Source: a virus
Lineage: Duplodnaviria; Heunggongvirae; Uroviricota; Caudoviricetes
Virus record (IMG/VR): IMGVR_UViG_2534681772_000018
DNA length: 34,178 nt
Reading direction: 5' to 3' (one strand)
How positions within the stretch are numbered: the first letter of the stretch is position 1; every line of letters begins with the position of its first letter. Made by a program: the position numbers and the translations under genes. The notes under the pieces were generated by a model, which worked only from the letters and a program-made list of their open reading frames with translations, searched no databases and was not told the DNA's origin. Positions 5,977 through 33,200 of this stretch are shown here, one piece after another.

Positions 5977-6921
5977 ATGCCAACAGTAGTTTCACTTTTT
6001 TCTGGATGCGGTGGTTCCGATGCGGGGGTTCTGAGAGCTGGCTTTGATGTGCTTATGGCCAACGATATCTTGCCGTATGCGCGCGATGTTTATATTGCCA
6101 ATCATCCAGAAACTGATTACATTTTAGGCAATATTGCTGATGTAACTACTTTTCCTAAATCTGATTTGCTAGTAGGTTGTTATCCATGTCAGGGATTCAG
6201 CCAGGGTGGTGCGCGTAAGGCCGATCGAAAAATTAATACTCTTTATTTAGAGTTTGCTAGAGCTTTAAACAATATAAAGCCTAAAGCTTTTATAGTAGAA
6301 AACGTGTCTGGTATGGTTAGAAAAAACTTCGAGCATTTGTTATCTGACCAGATCAGGGTTTTTACTGAAGCAGGTTATGCTGTTTCAGCAAAAGTTTTGA
6401 ATGCGGCTGAATATGGAGTAGCGCAGGAAAGAAAAAGAATATTTATCGTAGGAATCCGTAATGATTTCAAAGTTAAGTACGAGTTCCCTCAGCCAACTCA
6501 TGGGCCGGCGACTGGCGTCAACTATGTTACTATTAAAGATGCTATAGGGCATTTACCTGAATGGCCAGAAGGTGAATTTTATGATATGGGGTTCCATTGG
6601 TATTATATGTCTCGCAATCGTCGCCAAGATTGGGATCAAATTTCAAAGACAATAGTTGCTAATGCAAGGCATATGCCGTTGCATCCTATCAGTCCTTCGA
6701 TGGAGAAAGTAAGAACTGATGAATGGAGGTTTGTTGAGGATCGGAGAGCTCGCAGATTCAGTTTTCGAGAGGCAGCACTATTACAAGGGTTTGAGGATCT
6801 AGTGTTTCCCGAAACAAATGCTGCAAGTCTTGGCATGAAATACACGGTGGTTGGTAATGCAGTGCCTCCGCCGCTTTTTGAAGCTGTAACGAAGGCATTG
6901 CCAATAGAATTATGGGATTGA
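5977..6921 (+). CDS. DNA (cytosine-5)-methyltransferase, Dcm/M.HhaI-like
   Basis: 314-aa ORF with the canonical C5-MTase motifs: motif I FSGCGG, motif IV PCQGFS (catalytic Cys), motif VI ENV, motif VIII QERKR, motif X GNAV. AGGAGGGG precedes the ATG; TATAAT at 5946-5951 upstream. Noticeably AT-rich relative to the phage backbone. Confidence 0.9.
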   Translation: MPTVVSLFSGCGGSDAGVLRAGFDVLMANDILPYARDVYIANHPETDYILGNIADVTTFPKSDLLVGCYPCQGFSQGGARKADRKINTLYLEFARALNNIKPKAFIVENVSGMVRKNFEHLLSDQIRVFTEAGYAVSAKVLNAAEYGVAQERKRIFIVGIRNDFKVKYEFPQPTHGPATGVNYVTIKDAIGHLPEWPEGEFYDMGFHWYYMSRNRRQDWDQISKTIVANARHMPLHPISPSMEKVRTDEWRFVEDRRARRFSFREAALLQGFEDLVFPETNAASLGMKYTVVGNAVPPPLFEAVTKALPIELWD

Positions 6922-6928
6922 TAAGCTA

Positions 6929-7924
6929 TTAAGGCTCTGGATTTAATGTATAAAGTTCTTCTTCAAATTCGCGAAACCAATCAGAGGTAGTTATCGCTTC
7001 CCATTGGTTTGCCTTATCAAGTAGATATATGATCCTCAACCTATCTAATAATAATACACCAGCGGTTGCATGTGTGCTTACCCATTCGCCATTTGCTTCC
7101 CGATAGAAAACAGGCGTGAACATTGTTGATGGATGCTGGAAAGCAATTTGGAAATAGGTGGTCAGTTTTAACACGTTAGCCTCTAATGTTTTGCTTGGCC
7201 ACCCTGTTTCTTGTGCACCACATTGACCAAGAATTCCATAGTTGCTAGTTTGACCATCAGGAAATTCCACTGTAGCAATTAGGTCAAACCCAGCATCACC
7301 AGATGTGGGAGCTTTATTTATTTCCCTTGTGTTTAAACTACAAACTCCAAGATCTTTTCCTAAAATTTGTAGAGCATTCCGAAGATTCGTTCCATAATAT
7401 TTTTGCCTATCATCGGAGTTAGCATCAAAAATTCTTACGGTGCCATGTGCAGGTAAGAGAGAAATCATTGCAACTTTACATACTCTGGCAAAGCTCTTTG
7501 CCCAACGTTGTGCTGCTCCTCTAATCGACTTAAAGGATCTAAGTCTAGAGCAACAAAGGAGAAAAACATATATTCTTTGTTGTTGGTTTAGATTTTCTTT
7601 AATAATTATCTCATCACCTGAAATTATAAATGGATATATCTTTCCAAGAGCGCTTTCTCTATATTCGAGTTGTGTCCAAACATCTTCTAGTTGCTCTTCA
7701 AAACGATCATTTCTCTCTGCGTCTCCATCAATTTCTTCTTCAAAATTACATTCTTCATCAATTTCTTCAACACTTGTCATGCCGAATTTTCTTACTGAAT
7801 CTAAATCATTTTTATGCAGAGAGTTACGTCCGATATAATTAATCACCGTGAGTAACTCGGCTAAATCTGCAAACAAATGGGGAGAGTTGGGATGCATAAC
7901 TCCTACTTCAAAAGTCATCATCAC
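6929..7924 (-). CDS. Hypothetical protein (331 aa), second gene of the minus-strand cargo operon; no recognisable domain
   Basis: Long AT-rich ORF whose start overlaps the stop of the upstream ParB-like gene by 17 nt (7908-7924), and whose stop lies 7 nt from the convergent MTase stop. Acidic N-terminal stretch (EEIDEECNFEEEIDGDAERNDRFEE). No Walker, HNH or clear PD-(D/E)xK motif seen by eye. Confidence 0.6.
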   Translation of the reverse strand: MMMTFEVGVMHPNSPHLFADLAELLTVINYIGRNSLHKNDLDSVRKFGMTSVEEIDEECNFEEEIDGDAERNDRFEEQLEDVWTQLEYRESALGKIYPFIISGDEIIIKENLNQQQRIYVFLLCCSRLRSFKSIRGAAQRWAKSFARVCKVAMISLLPAHGTVRIFDANSDDRQKYYGTNLRNALQILGKDLGVCSLNTREINKAPTSGDAGFDLIATVEFPDGQTSNYGILGQCGAQETGWPSKTLEANVLKLTTYFQIAFQHPSTMFTPVFYREANGEWVSTHATAGVLLLDRLRIIYLLDKANQWEAITTSDWFREFEEELYTLNPEP

Positions 7925-9029
7925 CTCTGCTATTTTTCTCTGCTATTTCAGAACCTATAAGCTTAATATGTTTATTGATTCTTCGTGCTACTTCATGAGC
8001 CTGTCTATCATACTCTACTGTGGCAACCATGCCTGCTGCATCTATCAAAGCCGCTTCAACTTGATAAAGTAACTGGAGAAAGTCCTTAGTAATATCAGAT
8101 GTCAATTGGTAGGCCACTGCGAGTGGAGCCCCCATTCGGAATTGCTCCAATGCCTTAGGGCTACTAACAACAGCAGCTAATTCTCTTAAATTACGTGACT
8201 CTCCAACACGAGTTTTTTTATCCTCACCTTTTTTATATAACCACTCAGTTAGCTCTTTTATTTCTTTGTTCTTTAAGCTATTAGAGTTGATAATAGGATG
8301 ACTTGGTATTGTGTCTCCATCGTCTTCGATTGAAACTCCGACAAATTGGCCTAACCGCTCATCAGCAAGTGCTGTTGATAATACTGAAAATTTAATCGTT
8401 TCTTCATCTAGTTTTTCAATACCATAAAAATCATTTTCTTTAATGATTTCATACACCGCTAAAGCGTCTAGGTTACGCTTGATATGATCCCTACGACTGC
8501 CAATAGCTCTGGCAACCTCATAGTAGCGTAGCATCGGATCCTGATTTGCATTGGTATAATCAAAAAGCTGTTTAATATATCGAGCTTTTGATAAGGGCTC
8601 CCATTGTTTGACACCAGTAATATGTCTGAAACCAAGATACGGAAGAATCTCTTCTCTTGTTTGGCGCTCAATGACAGGAACACGATCGACTGTATGTTTT
8701 GCATTTGATGCAATTTCTCGTAGTCGAGCACTTGGATTTTCACATAGTGTCGGATCGCGTAATAATTTAACTGCGGATAGGCGACGGTTTCCTTCAACTA
8801 CAATGTACTTCCCCGGCGCGACACTGTCAGGAATGACAATCAATGGTTCTCCAGGGAAAAAACCATTTTCCGCAATAGCACTCATTAGATCTTCGATAGA
8901 TGTTGAGGTTGCTATGTAGTTAATCATTCCCAATTGGTCACGAGACACGCCTTCAGGAAGTCTTGGGTTTTCTGTGTCAAGTTCCAAATCATCTAGCGGA
9001 ACATAAAGTATTTCTGAATCAGCAATCAT
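7908..9029 (-). CDS. ParB/Srx-like N-terminal-domain protein (ParB-like nuclease/CTPase fold)
   Basis: 373-aa ORF; N-terminal region ...ENPRLPEG...PGEPLIVIPDSVAPGKYIVVEGNRRLSAVKLL parallels the ParB N-terminal domain, including the GxRRxxA arginine patch (compare Spo0J IVAGERRFRAA). GGAGA 6 nt upstream of ATG 9029. No parA partner gene nearby. Confidence 0.75.
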   Translation of the reverse strand: MIADSEILYVPLDDLELDTENPRLPEGVSRDQLGMINYIATSTSIEDLMSAIAENGFFPGEPLIVIPDSVAPGKYIVVEGNRRLSAVKLLRDPTLCENPSARLREIASNAKHTVDRVPVIERQTREEILPYLGFRHITGVKQWEPLSKARYIKQLFDYTNANQDPMLRYYEVARAIGSRRDHIKRNLDALAVYEIIKENDFYGIEKLDEETIKFSVLSTALADERLGQFVGVSIEDDGDTIPSHPIINSNSLKNKEIKELTEWLYKKGEDKKTRVGESRNLRELAAVVSSPKALEQFRMGAPLAVAYQLTSDITKDFLQLLYQVEAALIDAAGMVATVEYDRQAHEVARRINKHIKLIGSEIAEKNSRGDDDF

Positions 9030-15766: not shown

Positions 15767-15969
15767 TGAAGACCTTTGCGCTACAGGGCGACACGCTCGA
15801 CGCCATTTGTGTCCGGTATTACGGGCGCACTGAGGGCGTGGTTGAGACCGTGCTCGCCGCAAATCCGGGACTGGCTGAACTGGGTGCGGTGCTGCCACAC
15901 GGCACCGCCGTCGAACTGCCCGACGTTCAGACCGCGCCCGTGGCTGAAACTGTCAATCTGTGGGAGTAA
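15766..15969 (+). CDS. X: Tail protein X (P2 gpX)
   Basis: 67-aa ORF from ATG 15766 (MKTFALQGDTLDAICVRYYG...), overlapping the L stop; size and position match P2 X. Confidence 0.8.
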   Translation: MKTFALQGDTLDAICVRYYGRTEGVVETVLAANPGLAELGAVLPHGTAVELPDVQTAPVAETVNLWE

Positions 15970-20583: not shown

Positions 20584-21106
20584 TTCGCGACTGCTGCCGA
20601 CCGGCTCATCACCGCTTGAAGTCGCCGCCGCAAAAGCCTGTGCGGAAATTGAAAAAACGCCGGTCAGGATTCGTGAGCTGTGGAACCCGGACACCTGCCC
20701 GGCAAATTTGCTGCCGTGGCTGGCGTGGGCGTTTTCGGTCGACAGATGGGATGAAAAGTGGCCGGAAGCGACAAAACGCGCCGTTATCCGCGATGCCTAT
20801 TTCATCCACTGTCATAAAGGCACTATCGGCGCAATCCGGCGTGTGGTGGAGCCGCTCGGCTATCTCATCAACGTGACGGAGTGGTGGGAAAACAGTGACC
20901 CGCCCGGCACCTTCCGGCTCGATATTGGTGTACTGGAAAGCGGTATCACAGAGGCAATGTATCAGGAAATGGAACGGCTGATTGCTGATGCCAAACCTGC
21001 AAGCCGTCACCTTATTGGTCTGAACATTACCCGGGACATTCCCGGCTACCTGTTCGCCGGTGGTGTGGCTTATGACGGCGATGTAATTACGGTTTACCCC
21101 GGATAA
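20576..21106 (+). CDS. I: Baseplate protein I (P2 gpI)
   Basis: 176-aa ORF, same length as P2 I, overlapping the J stop. Confidence 0.85.
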   Translation: MSDSRLLPTGSSPLEVAAAKACAEIEKTPVRIRELWNPDTCPANLLPWLAWAFSVDRWDEKWPEATKRAVIRDAYFIHCHKGTIGAIRRVVEPLGYLINVTEWWENSDPPGTFRLDIGVLESGITEAMYQEMERLIADAKPASRHLIGLNITRDIPGYLFAGGVAYDGDVITVYPG

Positions 21107-21116
21107 GTGAGGAATA

Positions 21117-22309
21117 ATGAGCACAAAATTCAGAACCGTTATCACCACTGCCGGTGCAGCAAAGCTGGCAGCGGCAACCGCGCCGGGAGGGCGGAAGGTC
21201 AACATTACCACGATGGCCGTCGGGGATGGCGGTGGTAAATTGCCTGTCCCGGATGCCGGACAGACCGGGCTTATCCACGAAGTCTGGCGACATGCGCTGA
21301 ACAAAATCAGCCAGGACAAACGAAACAGTAATTATATTATCGCAGAGCTGGTTATTCCGCCGGAGGTGGGCGGTTTCTGGATGCGTGAGCTTGGCCTGTA
21401 CGATGATGCGGGAACGTTAATTGCCGTGGCGAACATGGCCGAAAGTTATAAGCCAGCTCTTGCCGAAGGCTCAGGGCGTTCGCAGACCTGCCGCATGGTC
21501 ATCATCGTCAGCAGTGTGGCCTCAGTGGAGCTGACCATTGACACCACAACGGTGATGGCGACGCAGGATTACGTTGATGACAAAATTGCAGAGCACGAAC
21601 AGTCACGACGTCACCCGGACGCCTCGCTGACCGCAAAAGGTTTTACTCAGTTAAGCAGTGCGACCAACAGCATGTCTGAAATGCTTGCCGCAACGCCAAA
21701 AGCCGTTAAGACGGTAATGGATGAAACGAACAAGAAAGCGCCATTAAACAGCCCTGTACTGACCGGAACGCCAACGACGCCAACTGCGCGACAGGGAACG
21801 AATAATACTCAGATCGCAAACACGGCTTTCGTTATGGCCGCGATTGCCGCCCTTGTAGACTCGTCGCCTGACGCACTGAATACGCTGAACGAGCTGGCGG
21901 CGGCGCTGGGCAATGACCCGAATTTTGCTACCACCATGACTAATGCGCTTGCGGGTAAGCAACCGAAAGATGCTACCCTGACGGCGCTGGCGGGGCTTGC
22001 TACTGCGGCAGACAGGTTTCCGTATTTTACGGGGAATGATGTTGCCAGCCTGGCAACCCTGACAAAAGTCGGGCGGGATATTCTGGCTAAATCGACCGTT
22101 GCCGCCGTTATCGAATATCTCGGTTTACAGGAAACGGTAAACCGAGCCGGGAACGCCGTGCAAAAAAATGGCGATACCTTGTCCGGTGGACTTACTTTTG
22201 AAAACGACTCAATCCTTGCCTGGATTCGAAATACTGACTGGGCGAAGATTGGATTTAAAAATGATGCCGATGGTGACACTGATTCATTCATGTGGTTTGA
22301 AACGGGGGA
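21117..22309 (+). pseudogene. H: Tail fibre protein H, 5' fragment, interrupted by IS2
   Basis: ORF begins at 21117 after I and reads ...FMWFETGD up to the IS2 boundary at 22310. The track ORF 21117..22481 continues into IS2 sequence before a stop. Confidence 0.85.
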
Positions 22310-22320
22310 TGGATTTGCCC

Positions 22321-23226
22321 CTATATTTCCAGACACCTGTTATCACTTAACCCATTACTGGCCTGCTGCCGCAGATATTCCCGTGGCGAGCGATAACCCA
22401 GTGCACTATGCGGATGCCATTCGTTATAATGCTCGAACGCCTCTGCAAGGTTCTTTGCTGCCGTTAACCCGTCTGGTTTAGGCATGATACTGATGTAGTC
22501 ACGCTTTATCGTTTTCACGAAGCTCTCTGCTATGCCGTTACTCTCCGGACTCCGCACCGCCGTGTTCTTCGGTTCAAGCCCCAACATCCGGGCAAACTGC
22601 CGTGTTTCATTAGCCCGGTAGCATGAACCATTATCCGTCAGCCACTCTACTGGAGACGCCGGAAGCTCGTTGCCGAAGCGGCGTTCCACCGCTCCCAGCA
22701 TTACGTCCTGTACTGTTTCACTGTCGAAGCCGCCCGTAGTGACTGCCCAGTGCAGTGCCTCACGGTCACAGCAGTCCAGCGCGAACGTGACTCGCAGTTT
22801 TTCTCCGTTATCACAGCGGAACTCGAACCCGTCAGAGCACCATCGTTGATTGCTTTCTTTCACGGCCACTTTGCCAGTATGTGCCCGTTTCGATGGCGGT
22901 ACAGCGGTTTTTCGCTCAAGCAACAGCGCATTCTGGCGCATGATCCGGTAAACACGTTTGGCATTGATCGCAGGCATACCATCAAGTTCGGCCTGTCTGC
23001 GAAGCAGCGCCCATACCCGACGATAACCATACGTGGGCAGCTCTCCGATAACATGGTGTATACGGAGAAGCACATCCGTATCATCTGAGTGACGGCTGCG
23101 GCGACCATCTTTCCAGTCATCGGTTCGTCTGAGAATTACGTGCAACTGCGCACGCGACACCCGGAGACAACGGCTGACTAAGCTTACTCCCCATCCCCGG
23201 GCAATAAGGGCGCGTGCGCTATCCAC
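22321..23226 (-). CDS. insD: IS2 transposase OrfB (InsD, DDE catalytic domain); normally expressed as an OrfAB fusion by -1 frameshift
   Basis: 301-aa [33 protein letters not shown]... recognised as IS2 InsD; overlaps the end of orfA in the -1 frame. Confidence 0.9.
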
Positions 23227-23549
23227 TTTTTTGCACGCCCGTATTCAACGGCTTCTTTAAGGAGTTCATTTTCCATCGTTTTTTTGCCGAGCAGGCGCTG
23301 GAGTTCTTTAATCTGCTTCATGGCAGCAGCAAGTTCAGAGGCAGGAACGACCTGCTCTCCTGCGGCCACAGCAGTAAGACTTCCCTCCTGGTATTGCTTG
23401 CGCCAGAGAAATAACTGGCTGGCTGCCACACCGTGTTGCCGGGCAACAAGGGAGACCGTCATTCCCGGTTCAAAACTCTGCTGAACAATAGCGATCTTTT
23501 CCTGTGTAGTACGCCGTCTGCGTTTCTCCGGTCCTAAGACATCAATCAT
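23184..23549 (-). CDS. insC: IS2 transposase OrfA (InsC, HTH DNA-binding)
   Basis: 121-aa ORF from ATG 23549 ([29 protein letters not shown]...) recognised as IS2 InsC. Confidence 0.9.
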
Positions 23550-23640
23550 CTGCTCTCCAATGACTAGTCTAAAAACTAGTATTAAGACTATCACTTATTT
23601 AAGTGATATTGGTTGTCTGGAGATTCAGGGGGCCAGTCTA

Positions 23641-24474
23641 GGGGATAACGGCAATGAATATTTCAAATGGAGAAGCCGCCAGAGTACTACAACAAAAGAC
23701 CTGATGAATCTTAAATGGGATGCTTTGTATGTTCTTGTCAATGCCATTGTAAATGGCGAAGTCATATCAAAATCAGCAAACGGCCTACGTATTGCTTATG
23801 GTAATTACGGATTCTTTATTCGTAATGATGGTTCAAATACATACTTCATGTTGACAAACTCCGGTGACAACATGGGGACTTATAACGGATTAAGGCCATT
23901 ATGGATTAATAACGCTACTGGCGCTGTTTCGATGGGGCGTGGCCTTAATGTTTCAGGGGAGACGCTTTCAGACCGTTTTGCTATTAACAGCAGTAATGGT
24001 ATGTGGATTCAGATGCGCGATAACAACGCTATCTTTGGGAAAAATATAGTTAACACTGATAGCGCTCAGGCGTTGCTTCGCCAGAATCACGCTGACCGCA
24101 AGTTCATGATAGGTGGACTGGGGAACAAGCAATTTGGCATCTACATGATTAATAACTCAAGGACAGCCAATGGCACCGATGGTCAGGCGTACATGGATAA
24201 TAACGGTAACTGGCTTTGTGGCTCGCAAGTTATTCCCGGCAACTATGGCAATTTTGATTCCAGATATGTGAAAGATGTTCGACTTGGTTCACAGCAATAT
24301 TATGGAGTTAACAACTGGCAAACATGGAATTTCCAGTGCCCGTCAGGTCATGTATTGTCTGGTATTAATGTTCAGGATACAGGGTCCAACTCTGCCGATA
24401 ATATAGCGGGCGTTTATTACAGACCCGTTCAAAAGTATATAAATGGCACCTGGTATAATGTAGCGAGCGTTTAA
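23641..24474 (+). pseudogene. H: Tail fibre protein H, 3' fragment (C-terminal receptor-binding region)
   Basis: Reading frame continues ...DNGNEYFKWRSRQ... to a TAA at 24472-24474. Removing IS2 plus one copy of the 5-bp duplication (1336 bp) joins it in-frame to the 5' fragment, giving an uninterrupted H ORF of about 673 codons. The track ORF 23560..24474 begins inside IS2. Confidence 0.85.
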
Positions 24475-24475
24475 T

Positions 24476-25003
24476 ATGATGCACTTAAAGAACATAAAAG
24501 CGGGTAACGCTAAAACACTGGAACAGTATGAGTTAACAAAGAAACACGGAGTTATCTGGCTTTACTCTGAGGACGGAAAAAACTGGTATGAGGAAGTGAA
24601 GAACTTTCAGCCAGACACAATAAAGATTGTTTACGATGAAAATAATATTATTGTCGCTATCACCAGAGATGCTTCAACGCTTAATCCTGAAGGTTTTAGC
24701 GTTGTTGAGGTTCCTGATATTACCTCCAACCGACGTGCTGACGACTCAGGTAAATGGATGTTTAAGGATGGTGCTGTGGTTAAACGGATTTATACGGCAG
24801 ATGAACAGCAACAACAGGCAGAATCACAAAAGGCAGCGTTACTTTCCGAAGCGGAAAGCGTTATTCAGCCACTGGAACGCGCTGTCAGGCTGAATATGGC
24901 GACGGATGAGGAACGTGCACGACTGGAGTCATGGGAACGCTACAGCGTTCTGGTCAGCCGTGTGGATCCTGCAAATCCTGAATGGCCGGAAATGCCGCAA
25001 TAA
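24476..25003 (+). CDS. G: Tail fibre assembly chaperone (P2 gpG)
   Basis: 175-aa ORF, same length as P2 G, immediately downstream of H. Confidence 0.85.
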
Positions 25004-25218
25004 GTTGTATGAGCTCTAGTGTGGGCTTACATATCTATGGCACAGAGTAAAGCCTAATCTGACAGTCCACTCTGTGCCAGAGGTGGGCATTGCTGATGTC
25101 ATAAAATATTATGCCAGCAGCCGTCTTAGGGGAGTGTTTACATTTCAATGATCGGGTATGATCTCGGCATGTTAATGGTTTATTACTAAATGCTTGCGCC
25201 TATCTTTATGGAGGAGTA

Positions 25219-26312: not shown

Positions 26313-26342
26313 CAGGCGGGCGAATTGCCTGCCTTTTCTTTA
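26313..26342 (+). terminator. Rho-independent terminator downstream of the Z/fun-locus cargo gene
   Basis: AGGCGGGC-GAATT-GCCTGCCT hairpin (one G-U pair) followed by TTTTCTTTAT. Confidence 0.55.
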
Positions 26343-33083: not shown

Positions 33084-33200
33084 ATGTGGACGCTATGTGG
33101 ACAGAGTTTGATATAAATCCATTTATATCATCAGGTTAGGTGCTTTTTTGTGACACCATCCCTGTCTTCCCCCACATGATGTGGGGTTTTTTTTATCCTC
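33084..33200. other. Probable attR region (phage arm with direct repeats, then core and host junction)
   Basis: Lies between the last phage gene (ogr) and the host gene fieF. Two direct repeats ATGTGGAC at 33084-33091 and 33095-33102, 11 bp apart, resemble integrase arm-type binding sites. A second terminator hairpin CCCCAC-ATGAT-GTGGGG plus T8 at 33170-33194 may be host-derived. Exact core not determined. Confidence 0.4.

Follow-up and report, generated by a model that had tools for sequence, protein, structure and literature searches.

That prophages decay through the insertion of IS elements into their structural genes is textbook knowledge, and IS2 has long been known to inactivate lytic functions in resident temperate phages. 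Sengstag, Shepherd & Arber reportedly described in 1983 spontaneous mutations of prophage P1 caused by IS2 and a hot target for the element. H is an essential tail gene of bacteriophage P2, as classical P2 genetics established with another allele of the gene. In the P2 record (NC_001895), V-W-J-I-H-G form a single operon, with a separate start for F; accessory genes occupy two cargo slots, one between gpA and gpQ and one between G and FI. Two closer relatives carry an uninterrupted H: the prophage of strain CLSC36 (NZ_CP041300) and the phage record Peduovirus P2 NC_070904. As regards the IS element, IS2 is bounded by inverted repeats of 42 bp (IRL) and 41 bp (IRR), and a programmed -1 frameshift at the A6G motif fuses orfA to orfB, giving the transposase OrfAB (PMC3299598). 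The copy IS2A of K-12 MG1655, 1331 bp long, splits its host gene yaiX into two annotated fragments.

The window analysed here, i.e. the whole stretch of 34,178 nucleotides, is essentially the prophage located between cpxP and fieF in the enterotoxigenic E. coli (ETEC) strain TW10590. As in P2, V-W-J-I-H-G are arranged in one operon and both cargo slots are present. It differs from P2 by its integration site, by its int, C and cox genes (45-52% identical to those of P2, the C repressor 45%) and by the C-terminus of H, and the P2 genes old, tin, fun(Z), orf30 and orf91 give way to other cargo. In contrast to the prophage of CLSC36 and to NC_070904, it contains a copy of IS2 within H. Taken as a whole, our explanation is that an IS2 isoform was inserted into H of an otherwise complete P2-like prophage, which thereby lost its tail fibre, and we hold it to be very probable.

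An IS2 isoform within the tail-fibre gene H

The features of the interrupted region are the following.

21117-22309, plus strand: H 5′ fragment, codons 1-397 and 2 nt, with the Phage_tail_fib collar, the fibre repeat and the first part of Gp34_trimer
21117-22481, plus strand: present-day 5′ ORF of 454 aa, made of 397 H codons, then 57 IS2-derived codons and a stop
22305-22309: left copy of the target-site duplication GGGGA, read directly
22310-23640, minus strand: IS2 isoform of 1331 bp; the transposase genes run antisense to H
22310-22350, minus strand: IRR of 41 bp, adjoining the H 5′ fragment, with one substitution relative to IS2A, 27 nt from the tip
22321-23226, minus strand: insD (orfB frame), 301 aa; domains HTH_21, rve and rve_3; differs from K-12 InsD by 11 aa substitutions
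23184-23549, minus strand: insC (orfA), 121 aa, with HTH_Tnp_1; protein identical to K-12 InsC
23226-23232, minus strand: A6G (AAAAAAG) -1 frameshift site, at element position 409 as in K-12
23560-24474, plus strand: chimeric ORF of 304 codons, made of 28 IS2-antisense codons, a boundary glycine codon and 275 H codons
23599-23640, minus strand: IRL of 42 bp, adjoining the H 3′ fragment and identical to that of K-12 IS2A
23641-23645: right copy of the target-site duplication GGGGA, read directly
23646-24474, plus strand: H 3′ fragment, from the third base of codon 398 through codons 399-673 to the stop, with the rest of Gp34_trimer and the receptor-binding part
24476-25003, plus strand: gene G, tail-fibre assembly chaperone (Caudo_TAP), downstream of the insertion in the V-W-J-I-H-G operon

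The first-pass annotation had described an intact full-length IS2 of 1331 bp, and its termini, InsC and InsD were all confirmed by direct reading and by alignment to IS2A. Read on the minus strand, the element starts with TAGACTGGCCCCC and ends with GGGGCAAATCCA. Its length, termini and inverted repeats, the orfA/orfB arrangement with the A6G site, the DDE and HTH domains and the 5-bp duplication are all those of IS2. Pfam searches with the two proteins retrieved rve (8.5e-20) and rve_3 (1.7e-18) together with HTH_21 and HTH_Tnp_1, and the TW10590 record carries a joined transposase CDS which PGAP labels ‘programmed frameshift’. The element has the same length, termini and gene arrangement as IS2A, with which it is colinear; the ungapped alignment gives 95.7% identity, with 57 substitutions and no indels, the first 45 nt being identical and the last 45 nt containing one mismatch. 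The element is thus an isoform of IS2, distinct from the K-12 sequence. Copies that are 100% identical over the full 1331 bp lie at many unrelated chromosomal and plasmid loci of E. coli, which indirectly suggests that this isoform may be active for transposition.

The GGGGA direct repeats flank IS2 at the positions previously proposed. The chance of a 5-bp repeat alone is 1/1024; the duplication is nevertheless certain because the empty-site copies carry a single GGGGA. The H frame is broken at codon 398 by 1336 bp, corresponding to IS2 and one copy of the repeat, and the window has no uninterrupted H reading frame. Joining 21117-22309 to 23646-24474 yields 2022 nt, that is 673 codons and a stop with no internal stop, in agreement with the in-frame 673-codon gene that the first reading had predicted upon removal of IS2 and one repeat. 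In strain CLSC36, where H is uninterrupted, the gene likewise measures 2022 nt; it shows 25 nt differences (6 aa), lacks IS2, and contains the stretch ...GAAACGGGGGATAACGG... with only one GGGGA. The open restored frame and the identical length indicate that the insertion is the sole lesion in H. The H genes of CLSC36 and NC_070904 possess the same C-terminal receptor-binding domain as the restored gene (98.8% nt and 99.1% aa identity), the uninterrupted H of NC_070904, 99.1% identical, representing a working allele. Furthermore, a reconstructed empty site of 500 nt was found 100% identical in at least 30 genomes; 101 records are at least 99% identical to it, and 154 genomes hold at least 80% of this query.

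The restored protein has the architecture of a gpH-type fibre, with an N-terminal collar, repeats, a C-terminal receptor-binding part and a Caudo_TAP gene downstream. The Pfam domains are Phage_tail_fib (residues 1-151), Phage_fiber_2 (170-210) and Gp34_trimer (375-485), and the insertion falls within the last of these, at residue 23 of about 111. The H 5′ fragment is 88% identical in amino acids to residues 1-442 of P2 gpH, versus just 34% identity between the 3′ fragment and the P2 gpH C-terminus; residues 184-673 of the restored protein are around 79% identical to the P1 S fibre. In the TW10590 records, GenBank calls the 454-aa ORF as a gene, and RefSeq annotates H as a pseudogene beside an IS3-family transposase.

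Completeness and distribution of the interrupted prophage

The content of the prophage was evaluated by tblastn with every P2 protein. The essential genes gave single full-length matches in P2 order with 94-100% amino acid identity, H being split. The colinear set comprises Q P O N M L X Y K lysABC R S V W J I H G FI FII E T U D ogr and int C cox B A. The P2 genes without a counterpart, namely orf30, fun(Z), orf91, tin and old, are all non-essential, and cargo takes their place. Neither PGAP nor RefSeq flags any other pseudogene in the prophage. The rest of the prophage is intact, as had been proposed from the first reading, and H is the only visible lesion since every other essential P2 gene is of full length.

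The cargo occupies two places, the fun(Z) slot and the gpA-gpQ region, a known defence hotspot. The gene following G encodes a 299-aa cargo protein which gave no match in Pfam or PADLOC. A terminator-like hairpin is present at 26314-26334. Comparison with P2 showed that the sequence flanking the pF activator site, including the start of the F operon, matches upstream of FI; the pF activator site itself was not recovered there. The att core is a repeat of 35 bp found at window positions 33152-33186 and, in TW10590, 150 bp to the left of the window start; this left copy falls outside the window. The CLSC36 prophage, around 97.8% identical overall, occupies the same cpxP-fieF site and, like NC_070904, shares the gene order, a 673-aa H and the 299-aa cargo gene after G. 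In CLSC36, however, an additional orf30-like gene is placed between S and V, and A is followed by two extra genes; none of these exists in the window.

IS copies commonly break or mis-join assemblies. However, the complete TW10590 genome and the independent draft contig AIHF01000031.1 both span the two junctions at 100% identity (over 6915 nt for the contig), and the duplication is perfect; an assembly artefact is ruled out because this contig was obtained independently. The IS2-H junction is present in TW10590, in AIHF01000031.1 and in CBCSBF010000058.1, and the 397-aa H fragment of strain 3350-73 (DEC13A) stops exactly at the insertion point. A search of the literature on strain 3350-73 yielded nothing relevant, and the literature search on IS-disrupted fibres in P2-like prophages found no directly relevant paper. 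Among the complete genomes, 1 of 5426 carries the insertion. As at least three further assemblies of the lineage share this junction, the insertion was inherited within the lineage and is not private to one isolate. The event had been called recent, which holds only in the sense that no divergence is seen. TW10590 carries around 20 IS2 ends, as compared with a median of 3-4 across genomes.

Predicted loss of the tail fibre

These data lead us to propose the following course of events. An active IS2 isoform would have moved, by the copy-out/paste-in pathway of the IS3 family, into H codon 398 of a P2-like prophage that resides at the cpxP-fieF site of TW10590 and related strains, a CFA/I lineage of enterotoxigenic E. 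coli. This would have created the 5-bp GGGGA duplication and cut off the receptor-binding C-terminal part of the fibre from the N-terminal part that attaches to the baseplate. Late transcription from pV would then have to cross 1.3 kb of antisense IS2 before the H 3′ fragment and G, so that both are expected to be poorly expressed; the insertion would thus exert a polar effect on G. On its own, the prophage would produce at best fibreless, non-adsorbing particles. By analogy with P2, where H is essential, it is predicted to be tail-fibre defective and to yield no infectious particles.

Immunity, integration, replication, head, tail and lysis genes and the two cargo slots are intact, and lysogenic functions, i.e. 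immunity and accessory gene expression, are therefore probably retained. Two routes might restore a fibre. A second match to the H 5′ fragment exists elsewhere in TW10590, so that another prophage of this strain could conceivably supply a fibre in trans. Precise excision between the 5-bp repeats, a rare event, could also restore H. Since classical P2 is not SOS-inducible, and given the divergent C repressor, induction by mitomycin C is doubtful here. Plaque-forming phage is not to be expected from the P2-like prophage of TW10590 and its relatives, which would not serve P4-like satellites well as a helper either. As a clean, natural, single-hit defective prophage whose other genes are intact, it would be convenient for repair and complementation work.

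Alternative readings of the insertion

We considered whether the insertion reflects selected domestication, the loss of the fibre locking a cargo- and defence-bearing P2-like prophage as a non-transmissible, lower-cost ETEC island. Such selection would explain the unchanged persistence in several isolates: at least four assemblies share the junction, no prophage gene having decayed any further. The location of the cargo, in the defence hotspot and the fun(Z) slot, also speaks for it. However, a lineage with a short clonal history is equally expected to show no divergence, even if no selection acts. The fibre knockout leaves lysis possible upon derepression, and the host would therefore gain little. 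The single complete genome with the insertion is to be set against the 154 genomes holding most of the empty-site query, and the high IS2 copy number is enough to account for the event. We thus regard selected domestication as unlikely. The same holds for a wider version of this reading, in which the ‘locking’ mutation is selectively maintained in CFA/I ETEC and the 304-aa fragment, together with G, might also be expressed in a host-beneficial role. The insertion is better described as ordinary prophage damage, which RefSeq has already annotated through the pseudogene, and its general importance is small.

Another reading concerns the 304-codon ORF, which would be expressed from inside IS2 and, with the chaperone G, would give a free receptor-binding fragment acting, for instance, in receptor masking or complementation. 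In favour of this, the frame is open and continuous with that of H, PGAP predicts a gene there (RefSeq hypothetical protein WP_000202503.1), and an intact G lies directly downstream. However, no Shine-Dalgarno sequence is present in the 25 nt preceding the ATG at 23560 (TAAGACATCAATCATCTGCTCTCCA), and a consensus scan detected no sigma-70-like promoter on either strand of 22200-23800, which is weak negative evidence because the known weak promoter of IS2 escapes the same scan. The outward -35 sequence of IS2 and of IS3-family elements in general is located in IRR (PMC9330008; PMC3299598), and here IRR faces the H 5′ fragment, i.e. away from the 304-codon ORF. In addition, the product lacks the N-terminal tail-collar domain and its Gp34_trimer domain is cut, so that joining to the baseplate would be impossible. 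The first-pass annotation was right in that an ORF starts in frame within IS2, while the expression it had raised finds no support in these signals. A free receptor-binding fragment is very improbable, and on the sequence a consequence of this ORF for the biology of the prophage appears unlikely.

That the junction is an assembly chimera, or that IS2 specifically targets the conserved tail-fibre module as a hotspot, is hardly credible, the former in view of the independent assemblies described above and the latter for the reasons that follow. Two other genomes carry IS2 in fibre genes, a few hundred bases from the homologous region: TW10573 in a P2-like H and VL40 in the fibre gene of a different myovirus. 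As in the window, both copies are full-length, antisense and flanked by a 5-bp duplication, and in both cases the ORF is intact again once IS2 is removed. However, the prophages differ and the three sites are distinct, with the duplications AGCCC and CAAAA versus GGGGA in the window. The hosts TW10573 and VL40 have a high IS2 load, as has TW10590, the three genomes carrying 18-30 IS2 ends against the median of 3-4. From around 24,000 IS2 places in around 28 Gb and around 1,300 copies of the 500-nt segment, about 0.6 insertions are expected by chance, and the three observed are within the uncertainty of this rough estimate. A hotspot was therefore rejected. The copies in TW10573 and VL40 are of the K-12 type, that of TW10573 having three differences from IS2A; PGAP labels them ‘IS2 family’, whereas the isoform of the window is labelled just ‘IS3 family transposase’.

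Structure and target of the insertion

The region 21000-25200 was read directly with its ORFs listed, and the boundaries of the element were then checked by script. The left junction reads ...GTTTGAAACGGGGGA up to position 22309, followed by TGGATTTGCCCCTATATTTCCAGACA... from 22310; on the right side, ...CAGGGGGCCAGTCTA ends the element at 23640, with GGGGATAACGG after it. This makes the element 1331 bp long, and it is flanked by GGGGA at 22305-22309 and 23641-23645, exactly as the first-pass annotation had claimed. The predicted restoration of a single H frame also held: spliced together, 21117-22309 and 23646-24474 make 2022 nt, or 673 codons, in which the sole stop is the terminal one.

The element is 100% identical to IS copies at many unrelated E. 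coli loci, both chromosomal and plasmid, and at least a partial match to it occurs in 4900 of the 5426 complete E. coli genomes. It aligned without gaps to the annotated IS2A of K-12 MG1655, with 57 substitutions (95.7% identity). InsC is exactly the K-12 protein, InsD carries 11 substitutions, the AAAAAAG frameshift site lies at the same position as in IS2A, and the left end is that of IS2A while the right end differs by one base. Pfam recognized HTH_Tnp_1 in InsC, and HTH_21, rve and rve_3 in InsD. IS2 as described in the literature has this architecture (41/42-bp ends, A6G window, OrfAB transposase; PMC3299598), and every IS2 hallmark open to in-silico testing is present. The element is therefore an intact IS2, as previously proposed, but of an isoform distinct from that of K-12. 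In keeping with this, PGAP labels it no more closely than 'IS3 family transposase'.

In restored H, Pfam matched Phage_tail_fib (residues 1-151), Phage_fiber_2 (170-210) and Gp34_trimer (375-485), and the insertion point at codon 398 falls within Gp34_trimer. A reconstructed 500-nt empty site was 100% identical in at least 30 genomes among the matches listed, and 101 records reached at least 99%. Comparison with uninterrupted relatives gave the expected result: strain CLSC36 carries, in a prophage at the identical chromosomal site, a 2022-nt H with a single GGGGA, differing from restored H by 25 nt and 6 aa. The H of a Peduovirus P2 phage record (NC_070904) is 99.1% identical. P2's own gpH shares 88% identity with the N-terminal part but only 34% with the C-terminal part, whereas the P1 S fibre shows about 79% likeness to residues 184-673. 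With an N-terminal part that is P2-like and a C-terminal part that is divergent and P1 S-like, IS2 lies in the conserved module linking the constant and variable parts of these mosaic fibres. The only feature that H lacks is an intact reading frame.

Lineage of the insertion and IS2 in other fibre genes

A 400-nt probe of the left junction found a full continuous match in only one of the 5426 complete genomes, that of TW10590, an archetypal STh, CFA/I, CS21 ETEC isolate (PMC6446980). The window equals the corresponding TW10590 region except at two positions. One is a C/T SNP at 15779, which gives residue 5 of tail protein X as Ala in the window (as in P2) and Val in TW10590; the other, and last, affects a single base of a poly-T run near 33190. 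The window therefore derives either from a sibling isolate or from a separate assembly within the TW10590 lineage.

The exact 304-aa chimeric protein was found under four accessions on four contigs. Contig AIHF01000031.1 spans both junctions with 100% identity over 6915 nt, which disposes of a chimeric assembly; contig CBCSBF010000058.1 starts inside IS2. E. coli 3350-73 (DEC13A) encodes a 397-aa 'partial' protein that ends at the exact insertion point and carries the private substitutions of the window. Because the identical junction recurs in TW10590, other contigs and the 3350-73 fragment, the insertion is real, young (zero divergence) and inherited in a lineage. The earlier term 'recent' therefore stands as regards divergence, but the event is not private.

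The event is of a well-known class, a prophage structural gene put out of action by an IS, and is already annotated: RefSeq TW10590 gives H as a pseudogene ('incomplete... missing C-terminus'), and next to it an IS3-family transposase (with a programmed frameshift) and a hypothetical protein of 304 aa. The initial observation was confirmed, with the refinement that the element is an isoform, and its interpretation is supported with qualifications, among them inheritance within a lineage and the doubtful expression of the 304-codon ORF.

Two further fibre genes of E. coli carry IS2:

TW10573, locus L003, 4302-5632, antisense to a P2-like H; duplication AGCCC; restorable ORF of 681 aa
VL40, locus L004, 4336-5666, antisense to the fibre gene of a different myovirus; duplication CAAAA; restorable ORF of 410 aa

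Both are K-12-type copies and independent insertions, removal of IS2 yields an intact ORF in each, and the sites in the window, TW10573 and VL40 all differ. Three such insertions were seen against a rough chance expectation of about 0.6. The fibre-hit genomes carry 18-30 IS2 ends (TW10573, 18; VL40, 30) against a median of 3-4, and so heavy an IS2 load suffices to account for the hits.

The 304-codon ORF and the remaining phage genes

The ATG at 23560 does open a 304-codon ORF (23560-24474, +) onto the H 3′ fragment, as had been noted, but signals for its expression were not found: no Shine-Dalgarno sequence in the 25 preceding nucleotides and no sigma-70-like site in 22200-23800. IS3-family elements including IS2 carry the outward -35 of junction and fusion promoters in the right inverted repeat (PMC9330008; PMC3299598), which in this copy points at the H 5′ fragment. 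Neither the collar domain nor most of the shaft would be present in the product. That this ORF is expressed with any function seems very improbable. Its product clusters with many C-terminal fibre fragments, 282-326 aa in length, which lie on long contigs and are not marked partial. These begin within the conserved module hit by IS2 (P0003, for example, starts MWFETGDNG..., and P0007 and P0010 start MSGGLTFEND...), and may represent either alternative receptor-binding cassettes or truncations of other kinds.

Features bearing on the remainder of the prophage are:

24476-25003, G, next gene after H, tail-fibre assembly protein (Pfam Caudo_TAP)
26314-26334, terminator-like hairpin
33152-33186, attR core, 35-bp repeat (GACACCATCCCTGTCTTCCCCCACATGATGTGGGG)

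The proposal that the rest is intact was borne out by tblastn with every P2 protein, which recovered each essential gene once and at full length, in the order of P2 and at 94-100% identity; no counterpart of orf30, fun(Z), orf91, tin or old turned up in the window by this search. The element is recognizably a P2-like prophage. Its int, C and cox belong to a different module (1-1750), at 45-52% amino-acid identity to P2 versus 94-100% for all morphogenesis genes. In TW10590 a second copy of the att core is found between int and cpxP, 150 bp to the left of where the window begins. The prophage is a mosaic, with immunity and integration specificity other than P2's, and uses the cpxP-fieF site.

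The P2 record places V, W, J, I, H and G in a single operon and gives F a separate start; upstream of FI, P2 sequence is kept on either side of the pF activator site, F-operon start included. Since the other essential P2 genes are full length and this start is conserved, the expected damage is limited to H and, through presumed polarity, G. The H 5′ fragment has a second matching place on the TW10590 chromosome, outside the window, which might be another fibre gene complementing in trans.

Cargo genes

The gpA-gpQ slot, a defence hotspot of P2-like phages (PMC9122126), holds a cargo island at 5977-9029, and a further gene occupies the fun(Z) slot, which lies between G and FI:

5977-6921 (+), C5 DNA methyltransferase
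6929-7924 (-), 331-aa protein of unknown function, phrog_3984
7908-9029 (-), ParB-N-like protein, 373 aa
25219-26118, 299-aa protein, its only match phrog_7195 (unknown function)

In its N-terminal half the ParB-N-like protein matches PADLOC PD-Lambda-5_A (E 1.6e-28). Its partner had no match among the PADLOC models, so that the pair may be a variant of a PD-Lambda-5-type system. The 299-aa protein, which had no Pfam or PADLOC match, is kept at the corresponding place in CLSC36.
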